A stretch of 46,597 nt of DNA from Pseudomonadota bacterium (GTDB lineage: Bacteria; Bdellovibrionota; FAC87; UBA2466): NCBI GenBank assembly GCA_043718025.1, contig JAYSWN010000211.1:1-46597 (forward strand), read 5' to 3'. This document shows, in pieces, positions 3,425 to 43,092 of the stretch. The stretch's first letter is position 1. Each line of letters opens with the position of its first letter. A model generated the notes under the pieces. It was not told the DNA's origin, did no database searches, and saw nothing but the letters and a program-made list of their open reading frames with translations. The translations under genes were made by a program, and so were the position numbers.

Positions 3425-3564
3425 GAATTTAATTGGGCAATACGTGATTTCATTAAATGGAGGGGGAAAGAGAATTTGTCATGATCGGCATCAACTATTG
3501 AAATGTAGCCGTTTTAAGAAAGAAATCAAGCCCAACAAAATGCGCCGCGGCGTAGCTCACGCCC

Positions 3565-4804: not shown

Positions 4805-5512
4805 ATGAAGACACGTAATTTTTTTCTCATCTTGATCATCACATCTTTGGCCAGGTTGGCCGCTGCGGACTCTAACGTCATTGAGAAACAGCTGATCGAT
4901 ATCGGCAGTATTCCCAATAAAGAAGTGATGGTCGTGCAAAAGAAATACACCAAAAAGAACTTCCGCCACGAGATCACCCCGATTCGGTTTGGCGGGCTTC
5001 CGTTCGGCGACATTCGCCGCACCTTTTTCGCGGGGGCGAGTTACACCCTTCATCTGGGTGATGCCTTTGCGCTCGAGCTTTTAGACTTCACTTATACCAA
5101 AGACTTTTTTACGGGGTTCACGGCAGATATCAGCGCCGGGCAAAAGGCGGCGGGAAAAGCAGAGATTAAACCCGACGTGCAGCGGCTTCTTTTCATGTTC
5201 ACCCCTGGCGTACAGTTTTCGCCGACTTACGGCAAAGCATCAACGCTTTCGCATTGGATCGCCTATCTTGAGCCATACGTTTCTTTGAATGCGGGTTTTG
5301 CAAAAACAGAAAGCAATACCTATTTCACGATTGCCCCCGGCCTGGGCCTGCGAGTTTTCTTTAAAGAATGGTTTTCAATGAAGTTAGAATTCCGCGACTA
5401 CATTTATACCGAATCAGTTGTGGATCGCACCACGGGCAATAACAAAAGCCTCACGCGTAATAATTACTCGGTGGCGGCTTCGCTTAGTTTTTGGATCCCC
5501 AAAATGTTGTAA
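4805..5512 (+). CDS. Outer-membrane beta-barrel protein, GltA/GltB/GltH-like
   Basis: Signal peptide; 'VVQKKYTKKNFRHEI' and 'FSPTYGK' motifs typical of myxobacterial/Bdellovibrio Glt-associated barrels; amphipathic strands; first gene of the Glt-like operon. Confidence 0.75.
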   Translation: MKTRNFFLILIITSLARLAAADSNVIEKQLIDIGSIPNKEVMVVQKKYTKKNFRHEITPIRFGGLPFGDIRRTFFAGASYTLHLGDAFALELLDFTYTKDFFTGFTADISAGQKAAGKAEIKPDVQRLLFMFTPGVQFSPTYGKASTLSHWIAYLEPYVSLNAGFAKTESNTYFTIAPGLGLRVFFKEWFSMKLEFRDYIYTESVVDRTTGNNKSLTRNNYSVAASLSFWIPKML

Positions 5513-5575
5513 ACGAGCCACGCTGGTTTTTCGTTGCCGATCTTAAGACCCTAAATGACTTGTACGAGGTTCCCC

Positions 5576-7030: not shown

Positions 7031-7038
7031 GGTTAACG

Positions 7039-10000
7039 ATGAACTTTTCGCCTAATAAAATTAAAGTGCCAGTCTGCCTCGTTTTGGCGCTCGCCACATC
7101 GATGGCCGCTGCTGCGCCAAAAGACTACGAGAACTTTGAATTGCCCAAAACCGGGAGGGCCGCGGTTGAAGCCCCTGGAGTCTCCTACAACTCGCCGCGC
7201 GTCTCGGTAAAGGGTACCAACCTGCGCCTGAAGACCCCCTCGGTCGATGCCCGTGAATACATTTTCGCAAAAGAATCTTTTCTTTCCGAACGGCGGGATC
7301 AGGCCATTAAACTGTTACGCCAAGAGCTCGACGCCGGCATGACGGCCAATCGCGATAATATGCTGCTACGTTTGGGGCAACTGTACGCTGAAAAATACAT
7401 GGAGCTTTCGTTTCGTGAAACCGAACTTTTTAGCTCCGAGCTGGCCGAAATGGAAAAGAAGAAGGCGCTCGATAAGACGGCTAAACTGTTGCCGCCGAAG
7501 ATCGATAACTCGCGTTCTCAAAGTTACCTGCGCGATTCGTTGGGCCTCTTTCACAAACTAGAGAAAGATTACCCTCGTCACCCGAAAATGGACGAAGTTT
7601 TGTTCTTCATCGGTTTCGTGGAGATGGAGTCAGGTAAGGCCGATGGAATTCGCTACCTAGATCGGGTAATTCGCCAATACCCTCGAAGCCGTAAGTTCGA
7701 AGAGGCGGTGATCTATCTGGCCGACTACTACTTCGATAAAACGAAATTCCGCGACGCGCTGGCTAAATACAGCATTCTCACGCACCGGGCCGAATCGCCG
7801 CTGTTTCCCTACGCGCGCTACAAGATTGCGTGGTGTGACCTCAACTTAAATCAGCCGCGTAAGGGATTGGCGGGGATGCAGGCGGTCGTTGAGATGCTAA
7901 ACGGCGCTACCGAAAAGTCTAAATTTAACCTGCGCGAGCAGGCGTTAAAAGACTTGGTGCTGTTCTTTGCCGAAGTGGAAGCGGTGGATGAAGCTACCTC
8001 TTACTTTGCCGACAAAGTGGGCCGCGACCGGATGTTGGAAAATCTGCGTCTGATTGCCGATATTTTGCGATCAAAGGCGCGCGACATTCCAGCTTCGAAG
8101 GCCTACGCCAAGTTACTTGAAGAGTATCCGGACAATCTAGAGTCTCCCAATTTCGCCCTCGGCCTTCACGACTCGCTAAACCGACTGGGTAAGACGGAAC
8201 AAGCGATCTCGGTCATGGAAAATGCCATGCGCGCCTACGGTGAAAAATCTGACTGGGCGAAAAAGTATCTCGAAACCAAACCCACCGAGACCAAAAGCGC
8301 GCTGAATGCCCTGCAAACTGATGGCGAGAAAGCCGCACTCTTTCTTCACCAGTCGGCGCAGAAGAGTAAAAACAAAAACGCCTACAATTACGCCCTTCGC
8401 CTTTACTCGGCACTGCTTTCGGGTTTCCCAAACCACCCGTCACGTAAGAACATTCATTTTTACCGCGCCGAAGTTTTTTATGAGCAGGGCAAATGGATTG
8501 ATGCCGCCAGCTCCTACATGGAGGCGGCAAAAGTTCCGCCTAAAGACAAACGCACCGACGAGGCGGTTTACAGTGCGTTGGAGTCTTTAGATCAGATGAC
8601 GGCGCGCCAAGGAAAGTTGGAGCGCCTTACTCCTGAAAAGGCAAAAACGGTAAATTTGGATCCCGAAGAGATTCCGGACGGAGAAAAACGCTTTATCGAA
8701 GTGGGCAACTTTTACATCACCGAATACCCACAAGGAAGCCGGGTGGTGGATGTGCGTTTTCGAGTGGCGACCATCTACTATCGCCGGCACCACTTGGATG
8801 TAGCACAGGCACAGTTGAAAGAGATTGCGATCAAACATCCTAAGCACCGCAGTTCACAAACCGCGGCGCACCTGGTTTTGGATATTTACAATGCCAAGAA
8901 AAACTACGAAACGTTGGGAAAAACGGCAATTGAGTTTGCTAACGTAAAAGATCTGGGTGACGCGAAGTTCAAAGAAGAGATGCGGCAAATCATTGCGGAG
9001 GTTGGATTTAAATCGATTGAAAAGCTAGAAGCGGCGTCTAAGTGGAGCGAAGCGGGCGACCAGTACCTGGGGGTCTATAACGCTAATCCCAATGGACCAC
9101 TAGCCGAAAAATCGCTCTACAACGCCGTGGTGGCTTTCGAAAAAGCCCAGGAGCCGGTGAAGGCCTCGCAAGCTACGCAGACCTTCGTGACGAAATACCC
9201 TAAATCGCCTTACACAGAAAAATTAACCCTTTCGCAAGCGCGCCTAGCTGAGCTGCAATACGACTTTGAAACGGCGCAGCGGCTATTTGGCGACTTTTAT
9301 AAGAAGTTTCCGAAGCACCCAGAAGCTAAGAAAGCGCTCTATAACGCTGCGGTATTTTCGGAGCTACTTGAGAAGAATGATACGGCCGCCACCCTCTACA
9401 ACCAGTATCTGGCGGGAAATAACGTGGAGAAAGAAAAACGGGCCATTCAGGAGAGCCTGGCCAAAATTTATCGCAAGCAAGGGCAATTCGATAAAATGGG
9501 CGTGGCCCTTCGGCGCCTTTCTCGTGAGTCGCGAAATTCCGAAGACCGGTTACGTTATCTCGCCGATTTGGCCCGACAGTACGATCTTGCCGGCAAGCTA
9601 AACGAAAAGAATGGCGCGCTAAAAGAGCTTCGCCAGCAGTACGAAGCGGCAAAAGGGGTGAAGGTTAGTGGCACCACGGCTTACTACGTTGCCGAGAGCC
9701 TATTTCAAGCCGTGGCGCCTAAACGCGAGAAATTTGCTGAAGTGAAACTGCGATTTCCTCCCGAAGATCTGATCTACCTCATGAAACGAAAAGAGAAACT
9801 GCTGGCAAAGTTGGTGGAGTCTTACGAGCAGATTTTAGAGCTGGGCGTTCCGGACTGGGGAGTGGCCGTGCTTTTCGAACGGGCCAACGCTTTCGGCGAT
9901 TACGCCAATGCCTTTCGCAATGTAACCATTCCGGCCAAGTACGCCGGCGAACTTAAAACTGAGGCAGAAAACAGCTTGAAGGCCATTTACATGGCTCGCA

Positions 10001-10200
10001 TCAAGCCCGTTGAAGAAAAGAAGAACGAGAACTTAAAACTTTGCAACGAGCGCGCTCAAGCGTTTCACGTTGCGAATGATTACGCCAAAAAGTGCTGGGA
10101 GCTGGTTCGTAAGAAGGAAGAGGTGGATCCGTCTGGTCGGTTCCCCGCACCGTCTTACTGGAGCACTCGTCCCCCCTCGGCGGAGGTCGCTAACAAATGA
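7039..10200 (+). CDS. gltD: Large periplasmic TPR protein, GltD/AgmU-like
   Basis: Signal peptide; many TPR/YfiO-like repeats (YPRHPKMDEVLFFIG, YARYKIAWC, LREQALKDLV); ~1050 aa; located before a GltE-like lipoprotein. ATG 7039 with GAGG SD. Confidence 0.72.
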   Translation: MNFSPNKIKVPVCLVLALATSMAAAAPKDYENFELPKTGRAAVEAPGVSYNSPRVSVKGTNLRLKTPSVDAREYIFAKESFLSERRDQAIKLLRQELDAGMTANRDNMLLRLGQLYAEKYMELSFRETELFSSELAEMEKKKALDKTAKLLPPKIDNSRSQSYLRDSLGLFHKLEKDYPRHPKMDEVLFFIGFVEMESGKADGIRYLDRVIRQYPRSRKFEEAVIYLADYYFDKTKFRDALAKYSILTHRAESPLFPYARYKIAWCDLNLNQPRKGLAGMQAVVEMLNGATEKSKFNLREQALKDLVLFFAEVEAVDEATSYFADKVGRDRMLENLRLIADILRSKARDIPASKAYAKLLEEYPDNLESPNFALGLHDSLNRLGKTEQAISVMENAMRAYGEKSDWAKKYLETKPTETKSALNALQTDGEKAALFLHQSAQKSKNKNAYNYALRLYSALLSGFPNHPSRKNIHFYRAEVFYEQGKWIDAASSYMEAAKVPPKDKRTDEAVYSALESLDQMTARQGKLERLTPEKAKTVNLDPEEIPDGEKRFIEVGNFYITEYPQGSRVVDVRFRVATIYYRRHHLDVAQAQLKEIAIKHPKHRSSQTAAHLVLDIYNAKKNYETLGKTAIEFANVKDLGDAKFKEEMRQIIAEVGFKSIEKLEAASKWSEAGDQYLGVYNANPNGPLAEKSLYNAVVAFEKAQEPVKASQATQTFVTKYPKSPYTEKLTLSQARLAELQYDFETAQRLFGDFYKKFPKHPEAKKALYNAAVFSELLEKNDTAATLYNQYLAGNNVEKEKRAIQESLAKIYRKQGQFDKMGVALRRLSRESRNSEDRLRYLADLARQYDLAGKLNEKNGALKELRQQYEAAKGVKVSGTTAYYVAESLFQAVAPKREKFAEVKLRFPPEDLIYLMKRKEKLLAKLVESYEQILELGVPDWGVAVLFERANAFGDYANAFRNVTIPAKYAGELKTEAENSLKAIYMARIKPVEEKKNENLKLCNERAQAFHVANDYAKKCWELVRKKEEVDPSGRFPAPSYWSTRPPSAEVANK

Positions 10201-11063
10201 AGCTCTATCCTCTTTTTCTCAGTTTAGCGCTGGCCAGTTGCGCTTCTAAATACCAAGCCCCGGTAACTGAGGGGCCATTGCCTCCGGTGACTCGACACGT
10301 GGCTTGGCTGGAAGGCGACGCCGAAAATGATTTTGAGCCCAATCGTAAAGTTGCCGAAACCCGCGTCAGCACCTGGGAAGGAAAAATCCCCGAGGTTTCT
10401 GACGGAGAAAAATTTCTCGAGTACGCGGCAACCCTCGGGGCGGCGGGGCAGAGTGTTTTGGCCGAAAAGAAGTTGCACGAATATTTAGCTAAAAATCCCA
10501 AAGATAAGAAGGCCGTATTCGTACTAGCGGGCCAATATTTGCGTAACAACCGCAAAGAACTGGCAACCTATCTCTATCAACAGCTCGAAAAGGATGGCGA
10601 ATTTCCATGGAAGGCGTCGCTGCTCAACAATCTTGGCCTTTTGGCGCTGCGCGAAAAAAATCGCATCTCGGCCTTAGATTATTTGGATAGGGCCACCAAA
10701 GCCTCTCCTGCTTCTGCCGCTCCACTGGTAAACTTAGGTTCCATCTATCTACAGAGTCGCAGCTGGGCCGATGCTGAAAAACTTTTTGCTCGGGCGCGAG
10801 AGTTAGATGCTTCGTTCGAAGACGCGTCGCTCGGCTTGGGCCTGGCGCTAGAGGGACAAGGAAAGTTAGAAGAGGCGCATTCGGTTTACGCCGAGCACCT
10901 GAGTAACAATGCGGAAGCGTCTTCCGTCCTTTTTAATAACGCGGTGCTCTTGGGCAATCGTTTGAATCGCAAAGAAGAGGCCGCCCGGGCTATGCAACGC
11001 TATTTGCAACGGGGCGGAAAAGAAACAGCTAGGGCTCACGAATTTATCCAAAATTGGAGATAA
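10197..11063 (+). CDS. gltE: TPR lipoprotein, GltE/AglT-like
   Basis: Lipobox LASC; TPRs (LLNNLGLLAL, VNLGSIYL, LFNNAVL); ATGA overlap with the upstream gene. Confidence 0.7.
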   Translation: MKLYPLFLSLALASCASKYQAPVTEGPLPPVTRHVAWLEGDAENDFEPNRKVAETRVSTWEGKIPEVSDGEKFLEYAATLGAAGQSVLAEKKLHEYLAKNPKDKKAVFVLAGQYLRNNRKELATYLYQQLEKDGEFPWKASLLNNLGLLALREKNRISALDYLDRATKASPASAAPLVNLGSIYLQSRSWADAEKLFARARELDASFEDASLGLGLALEGQGKLEEAHSVYAEHLSNNAEASSVLFNNAVLLGNRLNRKEEAARAMQRYLQRGGKETARAHEFIQNWR

Positions 11064-11074
11064 TAAGAGGTCAC

Positions 11075-11371
11075 ATGCCCACATTTTTGATTCGCATAGG
11101 TTCGACGATTCTAGTGCTCGTAGGGCTATTAATGCCGTTTTCCGTTTTTGGTGCCGAATCCGATTACGTTACCGAGAAAAAGGGTAACACTACGATTAAA
11201 TATAAAAAGAAAACGACTTACGATTTTGAGGGGGCCAATATTGATGGTCTCTACAATAAACCTTCGGGCTCTTACATCTCTAATATTAAAGACGTGAAGG
11301 GCCGCAGCATTATTCGGATTCGAGAAAATTTTGACGTCGAAGTTTCTGATTCTGTTCGCCAAATGAAATAA
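11075..11371 (+). CDS. gltF: GltF/CglF-like small periplasmic protein
   Basis: Signal peptide then 'YKKKTTYDFEGANIDG..KPSG...IIRIRENF', the GltF/CglF pattern. ATG 11075 with GAGG SD. Confidence 0.75.
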   Translation: MPTFLIRIGSTILVLVGLLMPFSVFGAESDYVTEKKGNTTIKYKKKTTYDFEGANIDGLYNKPSGSYISNIKDVKGRSIIRIRENFDVEVSDSVRQMK

Positions 11372-11401
11372 GTTTTTTTGCCGCGTGTATAAGGAAAAAA
11401 T

Positions 11402-13639
11402 ATGGAAGCAAAAGCCACCATTCAGATCCCCATTCGCCTCGACGTCCTGGATTCCTCAGGCGACACGATGCAAACCATGGAGTTCGTAAAAGAGAAGGTC
11501 GTTCTCGGACGCATTCTCTCGGCCGACCTACGAATCGATGACCCGCGCGTCTCGCGCATTCATGCGTTACTAGAGACAAAGGGTGACCGGCTCGTACTTA
11601 CCGACTTAGCGAGCTCGCACGGAACCTTCGTAAACGGTGAAAAAATTGTTGAACGGGCGGTAAAAGCTGGCGACATCATCCGTTTAGGGCACGTCGAAGT
11701 TCGAGTTGAAAAGGGGTCCGGTAAAGTTACCGCCGCCCAGCCTAGGTTCGAGGGTAGTACCATTACCGACGGCGACGAGACGATGATCGATCTCGATCGT
11801 AGCCTCATCAACCAGATGGATCGCCGCGGCGAGCCGGCCAAAGGAGATCGTCGGCAAAAAGATGCTTTTCCCGATGAACAGCGATTAGACGATCGTCGCG
11901 ACGGTGACCGTCGTATTGATCAGCGTGAAGGGGATCGCCGTACCAAGTCAGGTGCGGCAGGGGCCGGCTCTGCAGGTGGTGCGGGTGCCGAAACCGTAGG
12001 GGAATCGGAGCGCCGTGCTACTAAAGAACGCCGTACGCCGCGCGAAGACGAACGGCGCTTAGGCGATCGTCGCCGCGACGAACGGCGGATTTTCGACATC
12101 ACCTCTTTAGAGCGCCGAATTGAAGATCGCCGTACGCGCAAAGGCGACGACGACATGCTGCCCGAGGAGATGGAAAAGGCATTCGAGCAGCCCGAACACT
12201 CGCGAGAGCTCGAAGTTACCGTGCTCTGGGGCGACCATATTTTAGATGTTTCGAACTATCACGAAGCCGCCGTGCTGACCGTGGGCGAAAGCCCGCGCTG
12301 TGATTACATTATTCCCAGCGAAGGCATACCCGACGAGTTTCCCATCGTGTCGATTGAAGAAGATGGCAATGCGCACTTAGCGTTTACGGCCGACATGAAG
12401 GGCACCATTCGTGCACGCGACAAAATTTACACCGTAGCGCAGCTTAAAGACGAAAAGTTTGTTCGTAAGGACGCTGAGTACTTCGTGCTTCCATTGAAGC
12501 AAGATGACTTTGCGAAGCTAAGCATCGGTAACATTAATTTCTTCGTGCTGTACGTTAAGCCGGCTCCGCGAATTAAAGCGGCCCCGCTGTTAGATCGCGA
12601 CCCGCTACTCATCCGCACCATGGTTGGTTCGGCCCTACTGCTCGCCCTATTGTTCTTGATGGTTGGGCTTAACCCCAAACCACTTCCCGTGACGATTGAA
12701 ATGATTCCCGAACGTTTTGCGAAGATCGTAATTAAAAAGCGACCAGATATTTCCAAAATGGGAATCGTAGCCAAGGGCATGGATGATAAACAGGGCGGCT
12801 CAGTCGCCGGTGAAGGCGGTCCCGCAAAAGGTGAAGAGGGCGATGCCGGCCGAAAGGATTTGCCGAAGCAGGCAGAAAAGCCGCAAACCTTGATGCCGAA
12901 ATCGAAACCTAAAGAAGCTTCTGACTCGCCAAAGACCGCGCAGAAAATGCCGACCCAAAAATTGGTGCGGCCCGACAAGGCAAAAAGTGTTGGCTTGTTG
13001 AAAGCGTTTAGCCAATCGGGCGCCGGGAAAGACATTAAGAACTTACTCGATGCGGGCGATGGGCCAGAGGGCCGCGGCGGATTCGATGACTTTGGAAAAG
13101 CCGTTAAAGGTCACCGTGGTAAAAGCATTGAAGAGGTTGGCGGCGCCGGAGGCCTTGGGCTTAAGGGCGTTGGCGAAGGTGGCGGCGGAAAAACCATTGG
13201 TATCGACGGACCGTCGACCAAAGGGCTAGGCCGCGGCTACGTTGGCGATGGCATCGGCGAGGGCATCGGTGGTCCGGGCCGGTTGGGTCTAAAAGGCGAA
13301 CACGCGATAAGCATCATTTCGGAAAACGTTCAGGTGCTTTCGGGTCTGCCTAAAGACGTGATCAACGCCGTGGTGCAACGGCACCGTGGTGAGATTCGCG
13401 CCTGTTACGACGCCGCCCTTCAGCGCAATCCTGGTCTTCGCGGTAAAATCGTGGTGGCCTTTACCATTCAACCGAATGGTATCGTTTCCTACGCGGGCAC
13501 TAAAGAGAGCAGTCTAGGCGACAGCGCCTTAGAAAATTGCGTAGTGTCACGGGTGCGCACTTGGGTATTCCCCAAACCTGAAGCCCCGGTTGTAACTGAA
13601 GTCAGCGCGTATCCTTTTTATCTCAATCCAGCTAACTAG
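11402..13639 (+). CDS. gltG: GltG/PglI-like protein: FHA domain, [DE]RR-repeat linker, TM helix, Gly-rich periplasmic region, TonB-C-like AgmX/PglI domain
   Basis: FHA (LGR...VSRIHA...DLASSHGTFVNG); single TM (MVGSALLLALLFLMVGL); C-terminal 'IRACYDAALQRNPGLRGKIVVAFTIQPNG...ENCVVSRVRTWVFPKP...YPF'. Confidence 0.85.
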   Translation: MEAKATIQIPIRLDVLDSSGDTMQTMEFVKEKVVLGRILSADLRIDDPRVSRIHALLETKGDRLVLTDLASSHGTFVNGEKIVERAVKAGDIIRLGHVEVRVEKGSGKVTAAQPRFEGSTITDGDETMIDLDRSLINQMDRRGEPAKGDRRQKDAFPDEQRLDDRRDGDRRIDQREGDRRTKSGAAGAGSAGGAGAETVGESERRATKERRTPREDERRLGDRRRDERRIFDITSLERRIEDRRTRKGDDDMLPEEMEKAFEQPEHSRELEVTVLWGDHILDVSNYHEAAVLTVGESPRCDYIIPSEGIPDEFPIVSIEEDGNAHLAFTADMKGTIRARDKIYTVAQLKDEKFVRKDAEYFVLPLKQDDFAKLSIGNINFFVLYVKPAPRIKAAPLLDRDPLLIRTMVGSALLLALLFLMVGLNPKPLPVTIEMIPERFAKIVIKKRPDISKMGIVAKGMDDKQGGSVAGEGGPAKGEEGDAGRKDLPKQAEKPQTLMPKSKPKEASDSPKTAQKMPTQKLVRPDKAKSVGLLKAFSQSGAGKDIKNLLDAGDGPEGRGGFDDFGKAVKGHRGKSIEEVGGAGGLGLKGVGEGGGGKTIGIDGPSTKGLGRGYVGDGIGEGIGGPGRLGLKGEHAISIISENVQVLSGLPKDVINAVVQRHRGEIRACYDAALQRNPGLRGKIVVAFTIQPNGIVSYAGTKESSLGDSALENCVVSRVRTWVFPKPEAPVVTEVSAYPFYLNPAN
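11819..12133 (+). repeat. Protein-level array of 12 [DE]RR motifs within GltG (aa ~140-244)
   Basis: DRRGEPAKGDRRQ...DDRRDGDRRIDQREGDRRT...ERRATKERRTPREDERRLGDRRRDERRIFDITSLERRIEDRR, counted in the translation. Confidence 0.9.
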
Positions 13640-16978: not shown

Positions 16979-19531
16979 TTAGAAACCGAAGCTGGCCGCG
17001 GCCATGGGGTTGGTTTTGCCGAACCAGTTTCCGAAACTCGATTTTGGCTTAGGGCCAATGGGCGTATCCTGAGTTTTAAGCGGGATGCTAGGGGGTTTCG
17101 AAATTCCCCGTCCGGTGAGTGCTTCGTGCAATTGCAAACCGATCTCTCTTAATGGCGGTGGACGGTAAGCGCTGGCCCCCCCCTTTTTATCGCTGGAACC
17201 GCTATCTAAATCGCGTACACCATTAAACGCCCGGCTAACGACTTTGGAAATTTCATCTTCAGGCTGAGGGGCTGAGGTTCGAGCTAATCCGCTCGTTTTG
17301 GTTAGATTATTCCAAGGATTGTTTTTTACGGCCTCACTGGGCTCGGTCAAAATTGTTGCGAACGTTGCTTCGCGGGGACTTTCATCGTCTGAGGCGGTCG
17401 TTCTGGCGTTATTGGGAACGGTACGCACTTCGCGCGAGGGCAAATAGGCGGTCTTGGTCGAAGGCATTGGTATCGAAATATCTCTTTCGGCAGCTTTGGC
17501 GGCAGCTTCGGCGGCGGCAATTTGGGCCGAGACGGATGTGTTGTCGGACGGGGCTGCCGGTCCGGGTTCTTGCTTGTTTATTAACATATCGCCAATGGTT
17601 TTAACCCTGGATCCCCGCCCGGGATTACTAGTAATCACCGGTATGTTTCCAGCGGCAACTCTTCCCGCCGTGGCAGCGTTAGAAGCGGTGACTCCGGACG
17701 CGTCGGTTGAGTTATTCGGGAGGCTATTCAAAGCGTTGTCTTTTACTGCGTCCCCGGTCTCGCCCCCGGCGAGCTGCGCCGGTGAGAATAGTTGGTTCAA
17801 AAGTGAAGGTCCGCCGGTGGAAGGGCTAAGGTTGGCACCCGCGGCGCTTTCTACCGATGCGTTGCCTGCGCTTTTGGCGGTTTTGTCCGAAGGGAAAAGG
17901 TTTGCGAAAAAACTGTTGGATAAGCCGGGATTGCCGCTAGTTGGTAGGGAGCCCGAAGGCGCGAGGGCAGCAGGCAAACCTACCGCTCCGCCACTCGCGT
18001 AAGTACCAACCGAATTATCTGAATTGCCGGCTGAAGTGCCGGTGCTATTTTGCGGCGCGCGTCTGTTGCCATCAGCCGAAAGACGGGTTCCGCTGGCTTG
18101 ATTGGGTGCTTTGCTGCTTTCGTCATTGGCAATGGCCGAAGGTACCGATGGTCCCGTAGCTCCGCCACTATGGCCAAAAGTGCCACCGCCGTTAGAACTA
18201 CTTCCTGAATTTCGATCTCCTTCGTTGCCCGCGCCCAAAGCGCCGCCTGATTGCTTTGGCATACTCAGAAAACCGCCAGTATTCCCCGCCGCACCGAATT
18301 TTTGGTCGGGGGTATTGGCGGCAGTTGAGCCGCTCGCGCCGTTACTTAGTGTAGTGCCGTTGTTCGAAGTGGAGGGAATCCCGTTTGAGTCAGGGGTGCT
18401 AGTGCCCGTACTGATTGCGATGCCATTTGGCGGCGCGGTGTTAGGCTGCGTTTCGGTGGTCGCTGAGCTTGAAGCTCCCGAGCTATTGTTTGATGAAGTG
18501 TGAGTAGGAGTTGATTCCGTGGTCGGCTGGACTGCCGGTTTGGGTTCGCTAGCGGTTGTGACCGTAGATTCTGATTTGGCTATTCCGTTTGTTGGGTTAG
18601 AAGCCGGCTTTGCTTCGCCGGGTGGGGTTTCGCCGCCGTTATTATGGGCCACTTCGGTCTTTGGCATCACTCCGCTGAGAAAAGAAGAAGCTTTGTCGAT
18701 GGTCGGTTGTAAAGCGTCGGTAACCACCTTCAATCCGGAATCAAGGGCCGCCCCAGTAACGCCCATTCTAAACGGGCTCAGTGTAGTTTCAAAGAATCCC
18801 GGAGTTTTGGCCGCAGGCTTAGCGGCTCCATCACCCTCCTCAGTTTTGCCCACAATGGGTGGCATGGTCGAAAGTCTTTCAATCGAAGAGGGCTTGCCAT
18901 TGTCCTGCGCTAGATCCTTCGCCCCTTTGGTCGGATCACCGGAGGAGATGTTTTGCCAATCAATACTCATGATCGCCGTGAAGTGCCGATCATTAAACTC
19001 TTTTACCTTTTCTTTATTGGCTGAGGACTTAGGCATTAACGATAAGAGGTAGGACGAGGCCAAGGCATCATCTGGATTCATCTGGGAAACGATAAAGTCT
19101 TGCTCTCCCTCCCCTGCTTTTGATAGGGCGCGAGCGCTTTTGTCCATGGCGCGAGCGCTTTTCAAAAGGCTCGCGATGTAGGCGTCTTTATCTTCTTCTT
19201 TGCCCTTAAATTCTTTTCGCGCCTGCTCGATGGCCTTTTCAAGTGCCCCTTTAATTTCTTCATCTCCATCGGCGATGGCGTCGAGATCTTTTTTTGCTTC
19301 TTCCGCCGCCGTGGGAGGCAATTTTTTAGGGTCCTTTTCTTTGTCTTTGTCTTTGTCCGTCTCGTCGGGGGCTTGGGTGGGGTTAGCGGCCGGTTCGGAA
19401 AATCCCGAATAAGTGCTGTGTGACGCGATCGAAAAGGCCGGGGTAACAAAAATGGCGTGCACTATGGTCACGATAAAAATCACCGTGTGAAATCCAGGCG
19501 CTACAATTTTACGAGTAAACGGCAATTCCAT
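16979..19531 (-). CDS. Secreted or membrane-anchored low-complexity (S/T/G/N/A-rich) hypothetical protein
   Basis: 850-aa ORF; N-terminal hydrophobic segment; charged helical region followed by a long disordered Ser/Gly/Thr-rich region; sigma54 box upstream. Confidence 0.75.
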   Translation of the reverse strand: MELPFTRKIVAPGFHTVIFIVTIVHAIFVTPAFSIASHSTYSGFSEPAANPTQAPDETDKDKDKEKDPKKLPPTAAEEAKKDLDAIADGDEEIKGALEKAIEQARKEFKGKEEDKDAYIASLLKSARAMDKSARALSKAGEGEQDFIVSQMNPDDALASSYLLSLMPKSSANKEKVKEFNDRHFTAIMSIDWQNISSGDPTKGAKDLAQDNGKPSSIERLSTMPPIVGKTEEGDGAAKPAAKTPGFFETTLSPFRMGVTGAALDSGLKVVTDALQPTIDKASSFLSGVMPKTEVAHNNGGETPPGEAKPASNPTNGIAKSESTVTTASEPKPAVQPTTESTPTHTSSNNSSGASSSATTETQPNTAPPNGIAISTGTSTPDSNGIPSTSNNGTTLSNGASGSTAANTPDQKFGAAGNTGGFLSMPKQSGGALGAGNEGDRNSGSSSNGGGTFGHSGGATGPSVPSAIANDESSKAPNQASGTRLSADGNRRAPQNSTGTSAGNSDNSVGTYASGGAVGLPAALAPSGSLPTSGNPGLSNSFFANLFPSDKTAKSAGNASVESAAGANLSPSTGGPSLLNQLFSPAQLAGGETGDAVKDNALNSLPNNSTDASGVTASNAATAGRVAAGNIPVITSNPGRGSRVKTIGDMLINKQEPGPAAPSDNTSVSAQIAAAEAAAKAAERDISIPMPSTKTAYLPSREVRTVPNNARTTASDDESPREATFATILTEPSEAVKNNPWNNLTKTSGLARTSAPQPEDEISKVVSRAFNGVRDLDSGSSDKKGGASAYRPPPLREIGLQLHEALTGRGISKPPSIPLKTQDTPIGPKPKSSFGNWFGKTNPMAAASFGF

Positions 19532-35489: not shown

Positions 35490-38400
35490 TCAGTTCGATT
35501 TCACTGGTGCTTGGTAGCTGGTCGAGAAGAGTTTGACCCCTTGGGCCGCTTCGACCGTTACCATCATTGAGTTTTTAGAGTAATCGGCGTGCTGACTTGC
35601 GGTTACCCAAAAATCCACCTTCACCTCCTGATTAGGCGCTGAGGAGGGAAGGGGGATGAACGGCTGATGAATGCTCAGCCGCGCATCGCTCATCTTGAGT
35701 ACCAGCCGGTAGCCTGCCGGAAGCGGGCGGCCGCTCACGTTCTTTAACCAGATGGGGTTAGAGAACAAGCCATTCACCTTGGCGTTTATGGGATTGGGAA
35801 GACGCGACACCGTGAAGAACTGAGACATCTCTTTCTTCACGCTGAAGGTTCCAATCACCTTGGCTTCTTCTAGCACCGTGACCTTAAGGTCTATGCCCGA
35901 CGCGCCGGTGAGAGTGCCCAGAGCCACTTTAAGGTAATTGCCTTCGGTTTCGGCGGCCAACGTTTTTAAGATTGGGTTCTGCTTATCGATCTTGAGCGTT
36001 TTGGCGATGTCTTCAACCTTAACGGTGTAGCGACCGGTGGCGGTCTCTTTGCCCCCGAAGTTGCGTAAGCGCACTCGCAGCTCCACTGCATCCCCGAGTT
36101 GAAACTGCTCTCCGCCATTGACCCGGATAACTTCCGTCGACAGGGCTTTTACCACCGAGCTTGCGGCGTAGAGTTCGGTCATCGCGGCGTAGCCTTGCCG
36201 GTACGCAAGTTCACGAGCCGCCTTGATGCTGCCCTCAAAGCCTTTGTTATCTCCCGCGGCGTAACCCTCTTGGTAAGCAGCTTTGGCGCCGGCCACTTTG
36301 CCGTCGGCTTCGCCTGCCTCGTAGCCCGATTTAAAGCCTTCGTCGTACTTAAGCGGCAGAGCCGCCGCTTCGGCGGCCGCTTTATTTTCGGCGTAAGCGG
36401 TGGCGTAGGCTTTGGGACGGGCCACGGCGTAGGCATTGTCGTAACCGTTTCTATACCCATCGGCATCGCCACGTACGGCTTCGGCATCGTAAACCACGCC
36501 AAAGTTTTTAGCGTAGGCCTCGTTGTAGCTCTTGTCGTAGGTGAGTTGGTAATTGACGGCGTAGACTGCCGGGTAACCGGTGTTGTACTCCGAAGTGTAA
36601 GCGTTGTCGTACGCGCTGCCGTACGCGCTGTCGAAGTCAGGGTGCTCGTAGGTTTTCAGATACTGGCGGTATCTAAAATCCACTTGCGGAATCGACTCAT
36701 CGGCATTCGGGTTGAATGAAGTGAAACTCACCAACGAGTTGGCTTGTAGCGAGCGGCCCAGTCCGGCCGTCATCACTCCCCCCAAGCGTTGGCGAGAGCT
36801 TAGGGCGCGCGGCTTTTCCTCTTCGGCCGCTTTTTTCTCTTCTGAACTATTGTCGATATCTACTTTATTTTTGGGCTCGCTGCTTAAGATGGCTTTTTCA
36901 GCCTCCGCCGTGCCCCGCGGATAGTCTTCGGCCATGGCCAGTTTTCGGGCTCGCTCGGTGCCCGCCACTTCGCCGTCGCTAAACCCGCGATCGTAGGTTT
37001 CCTTAGACTTTCCTTCGGCGTAGCCCTTAGCGTATCCTGCCGCTTTGCCCTCGCTGAGCCCCTTTTGCAAACCCTTTTCAAGACCCACTTCGTGGCCTTT
37101 GGCTTTGCCCTCGTCGGTTCCGGCCTTGGTGCCGTGATCGAAGCCGTCAATGCTGCCTTCAGCGGTGCCGCGTTTTTGGCCAACTAAGTAAGCCGCTTTG
37201 TAGTCGCGGGCTTTGCCGTCGGCTTCGCCCTTGGCGAGTCCCCGGCGATTGCCATCGGCGCTGCCACTAGCCAACGAATCGGCCAAAGCGCGTTCGGTGG
37301 CCTCTTTTGCTCCGGGAGATTTTCCTTCGATACCGGCCGCCAAGGCGTCGGCTCTGCCTTCGGCATCGGCCGCCTTTTTCTCTTTGTTGTACTGGGCGTA
37401 GACCGACTCGAACTTCTGGAAAGCCGCGAGCGATTTGCTCTCTTCGGCTTTGGCTACCTCGTCGGCCGCGTTGAAAACGCCTTGAGCCATCTCTTCGAGG
37501 TTTCGGGCGGTGAGGATGCGGGGGTCGAGCAGCGCAATCTGACCTTCGTTTTGCTGAATTTCGATCGTGAACATTGCAATTGCGCGCTGGTGGCTGGCGA
37601 CGGTGTTGTCGTTGGTGTTTACTTGATCCGCCAGGCGAATGTTTTCATCGTTCAAGGTGGTGACCCGGCGCTCGGCGGTAGTTTTAAATTGCACGAGCGT
37701 TGAGTTTTCGCTTACGGCCGTATTCACATTTCGCTGCGCCACGATCAAGGCGCTTTCGGCGGTAGCCAGCTCTATTCTCGTGGCGCTAATGGCGTCTTCG
37801 AGTTTAGTTTTGTGTTGGCCCTGTTTTGCCAGGCGGTCATCCACCTGAACCAGCGTGGTGCCGGCGGTTTCGCGCTCCGTGCGTTTTAGGGGAAGCGTTT
37901 CAGTTTCAATCTTAGTCTGGGCAACCTCAAGCTGGCGAAGCGTTCGGCGATTTTCGCGCAGGTCGTTAGTGGCCACGGTTATCTGCTCGCCCTTTTTCTC
38001 GAGGCGGCGATCTAGCTCGGCCAGGCGTGCATTCACGTCACGCAGGTCAGCTTGACGATCGGCTAGGCGCTTATCGACCTCGGCCTTTTTCTGAGCCACG
38101 GCTTCGCGTGAGGATGCCAGCTGTTCGCGATTTTTTGCCAACTGAGAAAGCTCTTGATCGTTGGCCGTTTTCTTTTGCTCGGCCTGAGTTTTGTCGGCGT
38201 TGTGTTCGTTTAACTTAGCTTGCACTTCGGCGATGCGCAGTGGCAGCTGAATTTTTTGGTCGCGCAGCGCCTGCAGCGCTTCGTTAGCCCCCTTAAGCTT
38301 GTCGTTGGTGTCCGCAATGTTCTTACGAATCTGAAGTAAACGAGTTTCCACCTCCTGAAGTTTAGCTTGCGTCTCCCCCAGGTTTCCGGTGGTCGTGGCT

Positions 38401-41378
38401 AAGGCCGCGGCTAGCACCGCTTTTTGTTCGTTGGCTTTGGCAAGTTGAGGCTGCAACTCCGCCACGGCTTTCTCAAAACCGGTGATCTGTTGGGCGATGC
38501 CATCGCGCTCGTTGGTCTTTTGCACAATGAGGGCATTGGTCTGTTGAATTTGGCCCGGAATGGCGGCCAGCTGTTGCCGGCTTGCGGCGAGGTTTTCGGT
38601 TAACGTTTTGATTTGGGCCACGAGCTGATTTTTTTCGGTTTCGGCCAGGGCTAGCGCATTTTGCGCTTTTTTAAGCTGAGCCTGCAGGTCATTGTGTTCG
38701 GCGGTGGCCGCGGCCACTTCGCTAGCCAAGGCATTTAGCTTTGCTTGCACATTAACCAATTTCTTATCTGCCTTCTCTAGCTCGGCGGAAAGGGTGCTTT
38801 GCTCGGCGGTTGCGGTAACCAAGGCGGCGTTTGCTTGGGAGATCTGGGTATTGAGCGCGGCCACTTGGCCGGGTATCGCGTTTAGATCGCTTTGCGCTTT
38901 AGCGATCGATTCGTTCAACGCTTTTTTCTGTGGCTCAACCCCGGCAATCTGCTGCTGCACTTGCTGTAGCTTGGCATTCTGCTGGGTAATTTGCCCGTCG
39001 GTGCCGCTGATCTTTTGGTTTACGGCGGCCAATTGCCCTTGCGCGGCGGTTAGCTTGGCTTGTAACTCCGCCACTTCGCTTTGCACGGTTTGAATCTGCG
39101 CGTTGATGGCGGCGATGCGTTGGTTTACGTCGGCCATCTGCTGGTCAACCTTTGCCTTTTCGGCGAGCTTTTGGGTGGCCTGATTGGTGCCTTGTTTAAT
39201 CTCGATTTCGTTCTGCTTAATTTCGCCGTTTAGTTTAGGAATCTGCGCTACCACGCCGACGTGTTCCACGCGTTTGGCGACAATCTGTTTTTCAAGCTCT
39301 TTTGATTGGCCTTCGAGCTCCTGAATCTGCTTCTTCTTTTCGGGAGTCATCGGCGGTTTACGAAGCTCGGCAATCTGGGCCTCGACCTCTTTGTTCTTTT
39401 GTTGAAGTGCGCCCATCTCCGTTTTGAGAGACTCGGCCTTAGCTTGGGCCGTGCTCAGTTGCTGGTGCAGGGTCACGTTTTCATTTTGTGCGGCTTGTGC
39501 TTTGGCGGTGGCGGCGGCGGCCTGTTGGCCGAACGTGTTTGACTGTTTAGAAAGGGTTTCTACCTGTGCCGCCAACGGTGCTTTTTCGGCGTTTAGCGCC
39601 TGAATTTTTTTGGCGGTCGGGGCAATCTGCTGTTGCAAACCACTTACGGTTTGGGTGAGTTGCGCCTGTTCGCCCACCAGCGTTTTTTTCTGGTTGCCGA
39701 GCATCGTCACATTGGCCTGAATGTCGGCGGCCTCTTTTTGCAGTCCGACTACCGATTGATCGAGTTTGGCGATGGCGCCTTGTGCAGTAGCAATGGCGCT
39801 GTTCAATTGCCCTTTGCGGCTTTCTAAATTGGCGATTTGCGTTTGCGCCGCAGTAATCGATTTGTTCAATTCGTTTATCTTGCCGTTAACGTTGGTAAGC
39901 TTAGCGGCAAGGGCCGACTTTTCGGTTTGAATCGTGGTGACCTGGGCTTCGAGCTGAGACTTTTGCCCGGTTAACTGGGCAAGCTTTTGGCCGGCGGCGG
40001 TAGCTTGGGTTTGCAACGTGCCGATCTGTACTTTGAGACTGGCGATGGTCGAATTAGAAGCGTTGAGGGCGGCCTGGCGATCGGCCAGCTGCGTTTCCAT
40101 TTTAGGAATTTGGTTTTCTAATTTACCCTTCTCTTTTTGCAGCGCGCTTTTGCGGTTTTCAGCCTGGGTAATCTCGTTGCCCACCTCTTGCAGCTTGGGC
40201 CTTAGGGTGGTGATCTGCAGATTGTTAGCCGCCATTTCTTTATCAAACTTGGCGATTTCGTTGTTGATGCTGTTTAAGCGATCTTGTTGCTCTTTTTGTT
40301 TGCCGGTGAGGTTGCCGATCTTGGTGGTGAGCTCGCCGCGGTTTTCTTCGGCTTTTGTTTCGTTAGCTTTTTGATTGGCCAACTGCGTGGTGAATTGATT
40401 TTGCTTTTCCACGGCCTGCGCAATTTCACCATCAATTGCGGTTAATTTTGCGTTAAGGTTTTGCAGGCGCTCGCTACTCTCCTGAATTTTGGTGGTGAGA
40501 TTGGCGATGCGTTGTTGCAGCCGTTGGTCTTCTTGTTGGGCGGCGGCAATTTTTACGTCTACCGCGGCAATTTGGCGATCCCACTCTTGCAGCGCTCCGG
40601 CAAACTCGGCCGACTTTTGGTTTAATTCGTCGATGCGTTGGCGAATTTCGGCTTTTTTAGTCTCCTCTTCGCCTCTCTTTTTGGTGAGCTCTTGCAGCTC
40701 GCCTTGCAAAAAGCCCAATTGAGTTTCGAGCACGCCGATTTGCCGGGCCACTTCGATGCGGTCGCGCCGCAGGCGCGCCACTTCGGCCACTAAACCTTGA
40801 ATTTCGTTGTCGAGGGTGGTGATTGAATTCACCAACTGCCCCCGTTGAGCGCTTAGCTGGGCAAGGTCGTTGATGACCCGCGACAACCGATCGCGCTCGT
40901 TGGCAAGGCGCTGCGCCAAACCGTCTCTAACTGTAGAGGCGTTGTCGCGGATTTTGCTTAGTCGGCGAATTTCGGTCTCTTTGTCGGCCACTTTTTGCGT
41001 GAGATCGGCAATTTCGTTTTGCAGCTTAAGAATTTCGGTGTCGTTAACTTGCGATTGAGCCTTTAGCTGATCGCTATTACGGTTGAGATCGCCAATGCGC
41101 CGCTCAAGGCTTGTGATCTCGGCAAGCGAAGAGGCCACTTTGTCTTGAAGGTTAGATTTTTCGCGCTCGAGGTTTGAACGGTCTCTCTGCTTCTGCTGGT
41201 AGTCAGCCTTTTTATTATTGGCGTGGCGTCGGGCTCCGTCAGAAACCCCTTTTTGCGCATTGTAAATTCCGCGGTATTTTTCGTAGTCGACTCGATCGGG
41301 AATTTTTGCAAGTTGCCCAAAGCTTGAAAACGTTTGAAATAAAATGAAACCGATAGCCCCAAAGACGTTGCCCCGCAT
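35490..41378 (-). CDS. Giant secreted coiled-coil protein (1962 aa) with GxxxG/YxxGY repeats and C-terminal Ig-like domains
   Basis: N-terminal signal-like peptide; heptad-rich aa ~31-1335; 4-residue Gly/Tyr periodic segments; C-terminal beta domains (GDAVELRVRLRNFGG). No Walker A/B, so not SMC. GGGGGGA SD. Confidence 0.85.
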   Translation of the reverse strand: MRGNVFGAIGFILFQTFSSFGQLAKIPDRVDYEKYRGIYNAQKGVSDGARRHANNKKADYQQKQRDRSNLEREKSNLQDKVASSLAEITSLERRIGDLNRNSDQLKAQSQVNDTEILKLQNEIADLTQKVADKETEIRRLSKIRDNASTVRDGLAQRLANERDRLSRVINDLAQLSAQRGQLVNSITTLDNEIQGLVAEVARLRRDRIEVARQIGVLETQLGFLQGELQELTKKRGEEETKKAEIRQRIDELNQKSAEFAGALQEWDRQIAAVDVKIAAAQQEDQRLQQRIANLTTKIQESSERLQNLNAKLTAIDGEIAQAVEKQNQFTTQLANQKANETKAEENRGELTTKIGNLTGKQKEQQDRLNSINNEIAKFDKEMAANNLQITTLRPKLQEVGNEITQAENRKSALQKEKGKLENQIPKMETQLADRQAALNASNSTIASLKVQIGTLQTQATAAGQKLAQLTGQKSQLEAQVTTIQTEKSALAAKLTNVNGKINELNKSITAAQTQIANLESRKGQLNSAIATAQGAIAKLDQSVVGLQKEAADIQANVTMLGNQKKTLVGEQAQLTQTVSGLQQQIAPTAKKIQALNAEKAPLAAQVETLSKQSNTFGQQAAAATAKAQAAQNENVTLHQQLSTAQAKAESLKTEMGALQQKNKEVEAQIAELRKPPMTPEKKKQIQELEGQSKELEKQIVAKRVEHVGVVAQIPKLNGEIKQNEIEIKQGTNQATQKLAEKAKVDQQMADVNQRIAAINAQIQTVQSEVAELQAKLTAAQGQLAAVNQKISGTDGQITQQNAKLQQVQQQIAGVEPQKKALNESIAKAQSDLNAIPGQVAALNTQISQANAALVTATAEQSTLSAELEKADKKLVNVQAKLNALASEVAAATAEHNDLQAQLKKAQNALALAETEKNQLVAQIKTLTENLAASRQQLAAIPGQIQQTNALIVQKTNERDGIAQQITGFEKAVAELQPQLAKANEQKAVLAAALATTTGNLGETQAKLQEVETRLLQIRKNIADTNDKLKGANEALQALRDQKIQLPLRIAEVQAKLNEHNADKTQAEQKKTANDQELSQLAKNREQLASSREAVAQKKAEVDKRLADRQADLRDVNARLAELDRRLEKKGEQITVATNDLRENRRTLRQLEVAQTKIETETLPLKRTERETAGTTLVQVDDRLAKQGQHKTKLEDAISATRIELATAESALIVAQRNVNTAVSENSTLVQFKTTAERRVTTLNDENIRLADQVNTNDNTVASHQRAIAMFTIEIQQNEGQIALLDPRILTARNLEEMAQGVFNAADEVAKAEESKSLAAFQKFESVYAQYNKEKKAADAEGRADALAAGIEGKSPGAKEATERALADSLASGSADGNRRGLAKGEADGKARDYKAAYLVGQKRGTAEGSIDGFDHGTKAGTDEGKAKGHEVGLEKGLQKGLSEGKAAGYAKGYAEGKSKETYDRGFSDGEVAGTERARKLAMAEDYPRGTAEAEKAILSSEPKNKVDIDNSSEEKKAAEEEKPRALSSRQRLGGVMTAGLGRSLQANSLVSFTSFNPNADESIPQVDFRYRQYLKTYEHPDFDSAYGSAYDNAYTSEYNTGYPAVYAVNYQLTYDKSYNEAYAKNFGVVYDAEAVRGDADGYRNGYDNAYAVARPKAYATAYAENKAAAEAAALPLKYDEGFKSGYEAGEADGKVAGAKAAYQEGYAAGDNKGFEGSIKAARELAYRQGYAAMTELYAASSVVKALSTEVIRVNGGEQFQLGDAVELRVRLRNFGGKETATGRYTVKVEDIAKTLKIDKQNPILKTLAAETEGNYLKVALGTLTGASGIDLKVTVLEEAKVIGTFSVKKEMSQFFTVSRLPNPINAKVNGLFSNPIWLKNVSGRPLPAGYRLVLKMSDARLSIHQPFIPLPSSAPNQEVKVDFWVTASQHADYSKNSMMVTVEAAQGVKLFSTSYQAPVKSN

Positions 41379-41545: not shown

Positions 41546-43015
41546 TTATTTGAAGGCTCTTAGTGTTGTGGGGCGGTTTATACTTGAGGGAATTCGGCGA
41601 CCGTTAAGCGCAGGAAGTTTGGTGGACTGAAAAGTTTGTGGCGTTTGATTTGCCAATTGCAACTCGCTCTTGCGCCGCGCCCTCTGGGCGTTAATTGCAT
41701 TGCCACGCAACCCGTCTAATTTTGTAAGGTTGTTTTCAATCAGTGGTGTGGCTTCGTTGGCTAATCTCTGCAGGCGTGCTGCATTCATGGCGGCAAGCTT
41801 TGCGTCATTTGCCGTTTTTTGAAATTCCATTTGGGTTTTTGTTTTTACTTCAATCTCGTCGAGCGCAATCTTGAGGCGTTTATCCGCGCCGTTCGGGTCG
41901 CTTTCATCTTGAGCGCCCATGCTTTTCTGCTCTTCGGGGGTTAAATTTTTATCACGAACCGCCACGCTCGCAAGATCGAGTTGGCCAAGCTGAGACATGG
42001 ATTTGATCTCTTGAGCCTTCACCTGGTTTTGGCTCGGTTTGTAAGCGCCCGGATTTCCGCCGCCGGGACTTGGACTCTGCGGTCCGCCCCCTTTATTGGA
42101 TTGGTCGCCGCCTTGGCTGGGAGGGGGGTTGGCCTGTGAATCGTCGGTGCCAGTACCCGTTCCCGTGCCGGTTCCCGTACCCGTACCGGTGCCAGTCCCA
42201 GTGCCGGTGGCGGTTGCGAATTGGTTGTTCGGTCCTTGGACTTGTCTAGGGTCCACTTTTTCTATGGGTGGTATTTTTGACTCGTCGGTTTTTCCGTTAA
42301 CGGCGGGGCCGGCACTATCATCGTCTTTCGCGTCCGACTTGCTGGTATCGGGACGTCGAGGGGGGCCGGAGTCATTAATCTGAAGTTCGGCTATGGTTTT
42401 CTCGAATTCACGTTTTAGTTTTTCTTCGAGTTCAGCGCGGGCAAAGGCTAACGCTTTGGCCGCCGCATCTTGTTTGCCCTGAACGTCACCGAGAATGGTT
42501 AAGTCTTGTTCAAGTCTGAGAGGGTTAGCGACGCTACTTTCATCTTTCTTAGTATCAAGATAGTTTGGAACGACGTCCTTTAAAATTTCTGCTAAATCGG
42601 CAGCGGCTGAATTGAGTTTATTTTCTTCGTCTTTTGTGAGGGCTTCGCTAGATGTCGCAACCTTGACCGCTTTGATGGCCTTAACCTGTGCAAAGACTTC
42701 GGTGATGAAGTTATTTTTAGAATCGACACTCTTGAGCCTTGGATTATTTTCGGCCATCAAGAAAATTGAGAGGGGCAGTTGCTCGAGGCCTTGTACTTTT
42801 TTGAGTTCGATGAACCTGTTATTTTGTGCCGTATCCACACGCAATTCCCTTTTGGGGTCACGTGGATGCTCATAACGAAAAGTGCCCGGAGGAGTTCGAT
42901 CTTTCCTGTTAGACACGATAGGATCATGGTCCGCCCCGGTAGGTGGCGCACCAAACACACCACCGCCCACCATCAAGATGAGAAGCAAGGCGACTTGGTA
43001 AGAGGGGCGGTTCAC
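41546..43015 (-). CDS. Secreted hypothetical protein with (Thr-Gly)10 linker
   Basis: GTG 43015 with GGAGA SD gives the signal peptide MNRPSYQVALLLILMVGGGVFG; helical N- and C-terminal regions flank a low-complexity linker. Confidence 0.72.
   Translation of the reverse strand: MNRPSYQVALLLILMVGGGVFGAPPTGADHDPIVSNRKDRTPPGTFRYEHPRDPKRELRVDTAQNNRFIELKKVQGLEQLPLSIFLMAENNPRLKSVDSKNNFITEVFAQVKAIKAVKVATSSEALTKDEENKLNSAAADLAEILKDVVPNYLDTKKDESSVANPLRLEQDLTILGDVQGKQDAAAKALAFARAELEEKLKREFEKTIAELQINDSGPPRRPDTSKSDAKDDDSAGPAVNGKTDESKIPPIEKVDPRQVQGPNNQFATATGTGTGTGTGTGTGTGTGTGTDDSQANPPPSQGGDQSNKGGGPQSPSPGGGNPGAYKPSQNQVKAQEIKSMSQLGQLDLASVAVRDKNLTPEEQKSMGAQDESDPNGADKRLKIALDEIEVKTKTQMEFQKTANDAKLAAMNAARLQRLANEATPLIENNLTKLDGLRGNAINAQRARRKSELQLANQTPQTFQSTKLPALNGRRIPSSINRPTTLRAFK
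42146..42208 (-). repeat. (Thr-Gly)10-Thr coding repeat with diversified codons
   Basis: ACC GGC ACT GGG ACT GGC ACC GGT ACG GGT ACG GGA ACC GGC ACG GGA ACG GGT ACT GGC ACC. Confidence 0.9.
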
Positions 43016-43092
43016 GGCTTGGTTTTCTCCGGTTCCGACAACGGTGAAGCTCAAAAAAGCAAAACTATGCCGGGTTCTTTGCCTTTATATAG

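Follow-up and report, generated by a model that had tools for sequence, protein, structure and literature searches.

The window, meaning the whole 46,597-nucleotide stretch that was analyzed, carries on its reverse strand a coiled-coil gene whose product, here called P0001, is laid out in Table 1. The preliminary description of this locus had bounded the feature at 37390..41290; the coil does lie there, but those bounds left out aa 1347 to 1962, the best-conserved third of its sequence, where a striped helical segment and two Ig-like domains define the family. The leader of P0001 contains a hydrophobic 9-mer (KD 2.6) and, because it has no cysteine, is not a signal peptide of the lipoprotein type. 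A hydrophobic 9-mer also precedes the conserved start in 89 of the 91 family proteins scored, and the export signal that had been claimed is likely, judging from these family-wide signal-peptide-like leaders. Promoter and terminator scans stayed at chance level. Pfam gave only generic coiled-coil matches on P0001, and none in aa 1290 to 1962.

Table 1. Features of the P0001 gene, in window positions
Feature	Positions	Strand	Basis or description
Whole CDS, P0001	35490..41378	-	1962 aa, likely-exported hairpin-rod protein
Likely signal peptide for Sec export, aa 1 to ~23	41310..41378	-	Leader sequence, alignment
Conserved N-terminal cap, aa 24-31, predicted to pack against C-arm base	41286..41309	-	Alignment, complex-model interface
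Outgoing arm, aa 32-672, ~92 unbroken heptads	39363..41285	-	Periodicity, register, AF2
Hairpin turn, aa 673-678, with Pro 675 and 676; Pro 679 caps the return helix	39345..39362	-	Register, AF2
Return arm, aa 679-1346, one +1 register skip at aa 1161-1163	37341..39344	-	Register, models
Helix with a Gly stripe (GxxxG), aa 1355-1499; hydrophilic, with a FliH/Yae1-like repeat	36882..37316	-	
Linker, aa 1500-1579; aa 1517-1560 low confidence, likely disordered	36642..36881	-	AF2
Helix with a Tyr stripe followed by a Gly stripe, aa 1580-1739, probably the returning strand of a shorter second hairpin	36162..36641	-	
Ig-like beta-sandwich 1, ~aa 1742-1853, CARDB-like in homologs	35820..36155	-	AF2, fold search
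Ig-like beta-sandwich 2, ~aa 1854-1962	35493..35819	-	AF2, fold search

Several other genes in the window are of interest in their own right. Upstream of P0001, positions 41546 to 43054 (-) encode a secreted-looking orphan of 502 aa with a (Gly-Thr)n tract and a low-complexity linker; it had no Pfam or NCBIfam match and no paralogue, and it was not found in the fetched loci. An operon at 4805 to 13639 (+) encodes a beta-barrel-like protein, three TPR proteins, and an FHA/TonB-like protein, an arrangement that we take to resemble the Glt/Agm gliding cluster. At 16979 to 19531 (-) lies a gene for a low-complexity protein of 850 aa, rich in Ser, Gly, and Asn, which may have a leader and had no Pfam match.

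The coil of P0001 is regular throughout. Its heptad period lay between 3.46 and 3.53 in 13/13 windows along the coil, and a position-blind register model followed the heptads unbroken from aa 32 to about aa 673, called a break at about aa 674, and found one further irregularity, a +1 skip at aa 1161. That skip recurs 168 to 172 residues above the base in all five complete close orthologues. The break coincides with PPMTP (aa 675 to 679, nucleotides 39342 to 39356), the sole multi-proline cluster within aa 28 to 1345, and periodicity and blind register thus bear out the earlier picture of a heptad-rich region split once, at its midpoint. Eleven isolated prolines lie in the arms, 8 of them in the return arm after the turn; none occupies a core a or d position and they are not mirrored. 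The aromatic residues noted at the two ends of the coil (Y32, Y35, and Y39; F1320, F1323, Y1327, and Y1330) are present as described, all within the modeled base interface. Of the mirror-symmetric composition that had been proposed, the R/E/D part held (r = 0.78, P = 0.0008; 13 windows, permutation P values), while the A/Q part was weak (r = 0.46, P = 0.057). Mirror correlation of hydrophobicity told us little: its peaks recurred every 3.5 or 7 residues, and the highest did not fall at the turn.

Relatives of P0001 proved numerous. Its C-terminal region was matched in 27/61 related genomes, and a profile built from 27 members retrieved 250 representatives at an E value of ≤1e-30 and 488 at 1e-10, the weaker of these being possibly repeat-only matches. 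Across Bdellovibrionota, a phylum of predatory bacteria, a profile search found the family in 59 of 201 genomes, with a patchy distribution in which two genera, g7 (0/4) and g11 (0/5), gave no member. The named members are hypothetical proteins of Bdellovibrionota, Bacteriovoracaceae, Bacteriovorax, and Halobacteriovorax, cultured Bacteriovorax included; among the cultured members are WP_021268180.1 (1220 aa) and WP_102243370.1, which has a short rod. A relative from a Pseudobdellovibrionaceae MAG shows 41% identity to P0001 across the C-terminal 661 residues. Word-indexed homolog searches had returned 0 and 1 matches, which we regard as a failure of sensitivity because the profile search found hundreds of relatives. 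Literature listings and the starts of abstracts contained no description of the family, and no papers appeared under five identifiers of cultured members; subscription papers and supplements might list these proteins. We conclude that the family is real and undescribed, with a strongly supported hairpin fold and a role that we infer.

There are two paralogues in the genome of P0001, the other being a protein of 1238 aa with a coil half as long (G000:C197:2926-6669 [-], locus L063); it has the same foot, a coil span of 611, and a break at 0.48 of the span. A small secreted-looking open reading frame follows the family gene in three loci (L040, L042, and L063), and in another (L069) two members stand in tandem at 2552 to 6241 and 6424 to 10203, with spans of 613 and 633 and a central break in both.

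For the comparison of arm lengths, 184 sequences were reduced to 113 with both an N-terminal and a C-terminal anchor and then to 107 by a score filter and removal of duplicates. Their coil spans run from 219 to 1291 residues, P0001 being the longest member found, and fall into length classes, with 30 of the 107 at 600 to 700. The register model, which is blind to position, called a break in 89 of the 107 members, and in 87 the break was central (0.45 to 0.55 of the span), against a mean of 14 and a maximum of 26 under a uniform null. Among the 18 members in which no break was called, the minimum of helix propensity was central in 16. The two arms match closely across the family, the C-arm equaling 1.006 times the N-arm plus 10.6 residues (r = 0.999, n = 87, N-arms of 102 to 639), so that the homologs lack the asymmetry that would speak against a hairpin. 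The offset of about 11 residues is the one predicted from pairing Y39 with F1320. Arm lengths change in matched pairs, as had been anticipated: the N-arms of close orthologues are shorter by 43, 104, 113, and 195 residues and their C-arms by 42, 107, 112, and 198. Only at the ends, and in a single colinear orthologue, were diagonals clean enough to place these changes along the arms. Members form 27 clusters at 35% identity and 64 at 40%, and their kinship means that the counts overstate independence, yet more than 20 length classes are covered. Newly fetched loci gave 16 family open reading frames, 9 with both anchors, and the break was central in 8 of these, the miss being 5' truncated. A helix-propensity turn finder placed only 8 of the first 18 homologs at 0.47 to 0.50 and was replaced by the register model because single prolines and tip domains distracted it.

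Structure models agree with the hairpin at both ends of the coil. AF2, run on aa 547 to 807 as a single chain with an 11-row alignment, predicted a helix at 548 to 672, a 6-residue loop, and a helix at 679 to 806 (pLDDT 97.4, pTM 0.73), and the best Foldseek match of this model was the antiparallel Smc coil 5xg2 (TM 0.76, rmsd 3.0). At the base, a complex model of aa 22 to 140 with aa 1225 to 1345 gave an ipSAE of 0.63 against 0.00 for the best control; the mark applied to such models was reached by 116/157 solved pairs and 2/215 mismatched pairs. Separate runs shared at least 98% of contacts, with a partner pLDDT of at least 91. The best contacts were antiparallel with a residue sum of about 1358, the value obtained by adding the single skip to the a-d' sum of 1357 found at the turn; since agreement modulo 7 is automatic, what this shows is that the coil closes to within one heptad. 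Predictors of this kind handle antiparallel coiled coils readily, and both models, covering tip and base fragments of a 1300-residue coil, could pass by likeness to solved coils. The paired fragments that had been proposed for AlphaFold are thus predicted to form an antiparallel hairpin at tip and base, and the parallel-rod outcome was not seen. Coiled coils rise 0.1485 nm per residue, and an arm of 641 residues would by this arithmetic give a rod of about 95 nm, the same figure as in the preliminary description, where it was set at about twice an SMC arm.

Charge provided a further line of evidence. At the register of the base model, e-e' and g-g' positions held 1079 opposite-charged and 543 like-charged pairs in 98 proteins (nine were left out, three of them short and six with three turns), and at none of the other 14 heptad shifts did opposite-charged pairs exceed like-charged ones. 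An in-register parallel homodimer showed no charge signal, with 418/428 and 395/395 opposite/like pairs. Protein by protein, shift 0 was best in 35 of 96, where about 6 would be expected. In P0001 alone the preference is modest, with 28 opposite against 12 like pairs at the hairpin register, 24 against 12 at +35, and 20 against 12 at -28. Core volumes showed no complementarity at the hairpin register (r = +0.03).

The co-variation of the arms, the charge register, and the two-chain complex would fit equally well if the arms paired antiparallel between two chains, as a domain-swapped dimer or open polymer with a rod of about 190 nm and a foot at each end, and the AF2 tip model was built from one chain. 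The center of the span speaks against such a swap. It is a helix-breaking loop with proline enriched 6-fold, modeled by AF2 as 6 residues; across the family it tolerates inserted globular domains, and in three distant members a C-x7-C pair flanks it. We give the swapped arrangement a very small probability. That the chain folds back on itself at its midpoint, as first proposed, is highly probable on the combined evidence of models, arm symmetry, and charge register, and with equal confidence we describe P0001 as one intramolecular antiparallel coiled coil turning at aa 673 to 678.

Beyond the rod lies the foot, which is constant across the family while rod and tip vary. AF2 of aa 1290 to 1962 (79 rows; pLDDT 87.8, pTM 0.47) predicted a helix at 1355 to 1499, disorder at 1517 to 1560, helices at 1580 to 1739, and two beta-sandwiches. 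The first helix has glycine at each fourth position (21 G-G spacings of 4 among 28 glycines), and the second has a tyrosine stripe followed by a glycine stripe; the glycine stripes are hydrophilic. The lengths of the striped helices co-vary (r = 0.91, mostly in two or three classes) among the 145 of 312 sequences that have all four anchors, which suggests from sequence that they form a second, shorter hairpin of about 22 nm that would bring the Ig domains back to the rod base. In fold searches these domains resembled generic sandwiches (about 100 residues, Z up to 10.3, rmsd about 2.8), and CARDB matches 7/27 members and Yae1_N 9/27. A PDB sequence search with the foot profile gave 0 matches. 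The ESM Atlas held none for the foot at ≥0.9, the best being 0.80 and CARDB clusters 0.79; in the fold searches only the Ig domains were matched, and the striped helices were barely covered.

The other end of the rod is changeable. In P0001 the tip is a plain turn of net charge 0, and the idea of a basic tip was rejected on that ground and because tips across the family are inconsistently charged. Eighteen members carry, exactly at the tip, a domain of about 50 aa with four cysteines that is rich in histidine and glutamate, and the same domain also ends another secreted-looking protein of the P0001 genome (G000:C51, a 228-aa frame). This four-Cys domain (for example, P0012 aa 164 to 220) appears mobile and has conserved Glu/His; it is possibly metal or ligand binding, and it had no Pfam match and no usable ESM Atlas match. 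P0057 has a larger insert at the tip. At least four members (P0138, P0142, P0143, and P0146) have the foot and no rod. Five members with spans of about 970 show extra breaks about 150 residues to each side of the center, and P0002 has three repeated turns spaced 111 residues apart; symmetric triple breaks were seen in P0073, P0083, P0095, P0117, P0120, P0002, and L071. Such extra symmetric breaks could represent either hinged arms or a branched, trident tip.

What would such a protein do? Tentatively, and at somewhat less than an even chance, we read P0001 as a surface stalk that stands on its conserved foot and holds its tip out to surfaces or other cells. The modeled hairpin would bring the cap at the N terminus and the last 620 residues together at one end, and this shared end would be the foot, comprising the putative Gly/Tyr-striped second hairpin (about 22 nm) and the two predicted Ig-like domains. 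The protein would be exported by Sec and then pass outward, possibly through one of the secretins of its genome, in which five secretin matches were found. The foot would retain it noncovalently, and the rod would act as a passive spacer of set length, tipped by a plain turn in P0001 and, in some relatives, by an exchangeable globular domain. We prefer the surface stalk because constancy at one end, variation in length, and exchange at the tip are described for surface-recognition fibers of this phylum (PMC10769870), and because antigen I/II stalks share the layout (PMC7732690). A surface role is also favored because a rod of about 95 nm far exceeds the width of the periplasm, about 20 to 30 nm. 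Thin surface fimbriae of 3 to 4 nm, 50 to over 100 nm long, are described for B. bacteriovorus in one report (10.1101/2022.06.13.496000). For the hairpin family these fimbriae are only a lead; they may be the trimeric MAT fibers (PMC10769870).

The same hairpin could instead serve as a periplasmic strut or filament subunit along the envelope, shaping or stiffening the cell, for which a CrvA-like periskeleton offers a comparison. This is the main rival to the surface stalk. It would suit a Sec-type leader that comes without an outer-membrane export signal or partner gene, and most family tips have no domain; short periplasmic filaments have been observed, though rarely, in B. bacteriovorus (10.1101/2022.06.13.496000). 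Display is a better fit than a polymer for the tip inserts, the members without a rod, and the several paralogues of differing length, and the patchy distribution, with the family not found in g7 and g11, also counts against a strut, which we consider unlikely.

How the stalk would be held bears on a different possibility. P0001 has no transmembrane-like 19-mer, only 3/107 members have one, and P0001 has neither cysteine nor LPxTG as an anchor. The lack of an anchor would be expected of a released or prey-delivered "fishing-pole" arm, or a matrix cross-linker, whose Ig foot binds a target while the rod spaces or probes envelope layers. The Ig domains do resemble accessory or adhesive beta-sandwiches (Z 8 to 10, a generic likeness), and colicins use an elongated arm likewise (PMC4964976). 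Pfam, NCBIfam, and fold searches detected no catalytic or toxic domain, no conserved immunity-like partner is adjacent, and the glycine stripes are hydrophilic, so that a released arm has only a small probability.

In 34 loci no neighbors are conserved beyond genus-level synteny, and for that reason the weakest of the suggested roles is service as a molecular ruler, or as a strut, in a single fixed machine, be it a flagellum, a pilus, or a secretion system, to which FliH-like repeats would dock the rod. The GxxxG segments do match FliH, weakly (E 2e-5, far below cut-off), and the lengths do fall into classes, as the 600-to-700 group illustrates. Gene context is not conserved, rods span lengths of zero to 95 nm, searches of the genus of P0001 turned up no flagellin (0/4 genomes, 77 to 94% complete), and flagellin is present in genera in which the family was not found (g7, 5/5; g11, 6/6). 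A flagellar role was rejected on the flagellin distribution, and a fixed-machine ruler is scarcely probable. As a separate observation, flagellin was found in 0/4 genomes of this genus (g1; G000, G001, G002, and G003) versus 30/30 in the rest of the taxonomic family, and the genus is possibly nonflagellated.

Returning to the surface stalk, it is possible, and we put it forward with some reserve, that the family constitutes a new appendage class of single-chain alpha-helical hairpin "bristles," 15 to 95 nm long and planted by a Gly-zipper/Ig foot. If so, the bristles might be packed as a coat in which rod length and tip vary independently, reaching prey through surface layers. The family is also a natural length series of one fold, with nearly uninterrupted arms of about 100 to 640 residues, and as such a test set for how very long hairpins fold without losing register, change both arms in step as they evolve, and get through the envelope. 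Its presence in about three-tenths of the sampled Bdellovibrionota genomes and in cultured Bacteriovorax makes it an accessible candidate for unexplained thin surface fibers, and it is a candidate for prey or surface contact beyond MAT fibers.

Among known systems, the arms of SMC, Rad50, and MukB are closest in predicted fold, being likewise intramolecular antiparallel two-helix coils, with 5xg2 as the best structural match. SMC and Rad50 arms measure 50 nm (PMC5082667), the size of the family's 600-to-700 span class, and the predicted 95-nm rod of P0001 is about twice that. The family differs in being likely exported and in having nearly uninterrupted arms whose length varies sixfold. The earlier claim that P0001 has no ATPase head or hinge is upheld: a Walker A motif near the N terminus was found in 0/107 members, P0001 has no LSGG, and at the turn there is a 6-residue loop with no hinge domain or CxxC zinc hook, the protein having no cysteine. 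One loose Walker A match at aa 1347 of P0001 lies in a loop and is not conserved, and an SMC HMM scored 237 against a cut-off of 567, on the coil only. In a comparison with Crescentin and CrvA, Rod_CreS scored 47 bits on P0001 against a cut-off of 100.

The four-residue glycine periodicity of the foot recalls FliH/YscL and Yae1/Lto1. A match to FliH as a whole protein was not found (24 bits against a cut-off of 180, in the repeat only), and P0001 differs from FliH and Yae1 in having two striped helices in one chain whose lengths co-vary, in being likely exported, and in coming from a genus without detected flagellin. The coils of colicins, PcsB, and EnvC share the hairpin geometry, and 6ewy, RipA, is among the Foldseek matches of the P0001 hairpin model; colicin arms and RipA/PcsB/EnvC coils are, like P0001, antiparallel hairpins with both termini at one end. 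These arms are several times shorter than those of P0001, and they are attached to toxin or hydrolase domains, neither of which was detected in P0001. The long helical arm of colicins is called a "fishing pole" (PMC4964976).

The MAT fibers of Bdellovibrio belong to the same phylum and are described as multicopy and of differing lengths, one end being conserved and the tip diversified (PMC10769870). The hairpin family likewise has a constant end and a variable tip. MAT fibers, however, are beta-rich trimers of a phage-tail-like kind whose tip is C-terminal, whereas the rod of P0001 is predicted to be a monomeric alpha hairpin with its tip in mid-chain. Models of P0001 show an all-helical rod plus Ig domains and no beta-helical or phage-tail-like fiber, and an S74 domain was not found in its genome (92% complete).

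The nearest parallel in layout is antigen I/II. SpaP, like P0001, has a signal peptide, an outgoing segment, a tip, a returning segment, and C-terminal Ig-like domains (two or three in SpaP; two beta-sandwiches in P0001, alike in fold class only), and, as predicted for P0001, the N terminus of antigen I/II locks onto the base. SpaP raises its V domain over 50 nm (PMC7732690). In antigen I/II an alpha helix is packed against a polyproline helix, and the protein is sortase anchored in Gram-positive bacteria, whereas P0001 has two heptad-helix arms, a rod up to about twice as long, an optional tip domain, and a GxxxG segment between rod and Ig domains; neither an alanine-rich helix paired with proline-rich PPII repeats, nor LPxTG, nor any sequence match to antigen I/II was found in P0001. 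By the defining features of each, P0001 is not an SMC/Rad50 protein, an antigen I/II protein, a FliH, or a MAT fiber: its predicted fold is that of an SMC arm, and its way of working is likely that of an antigen I/II stalk.
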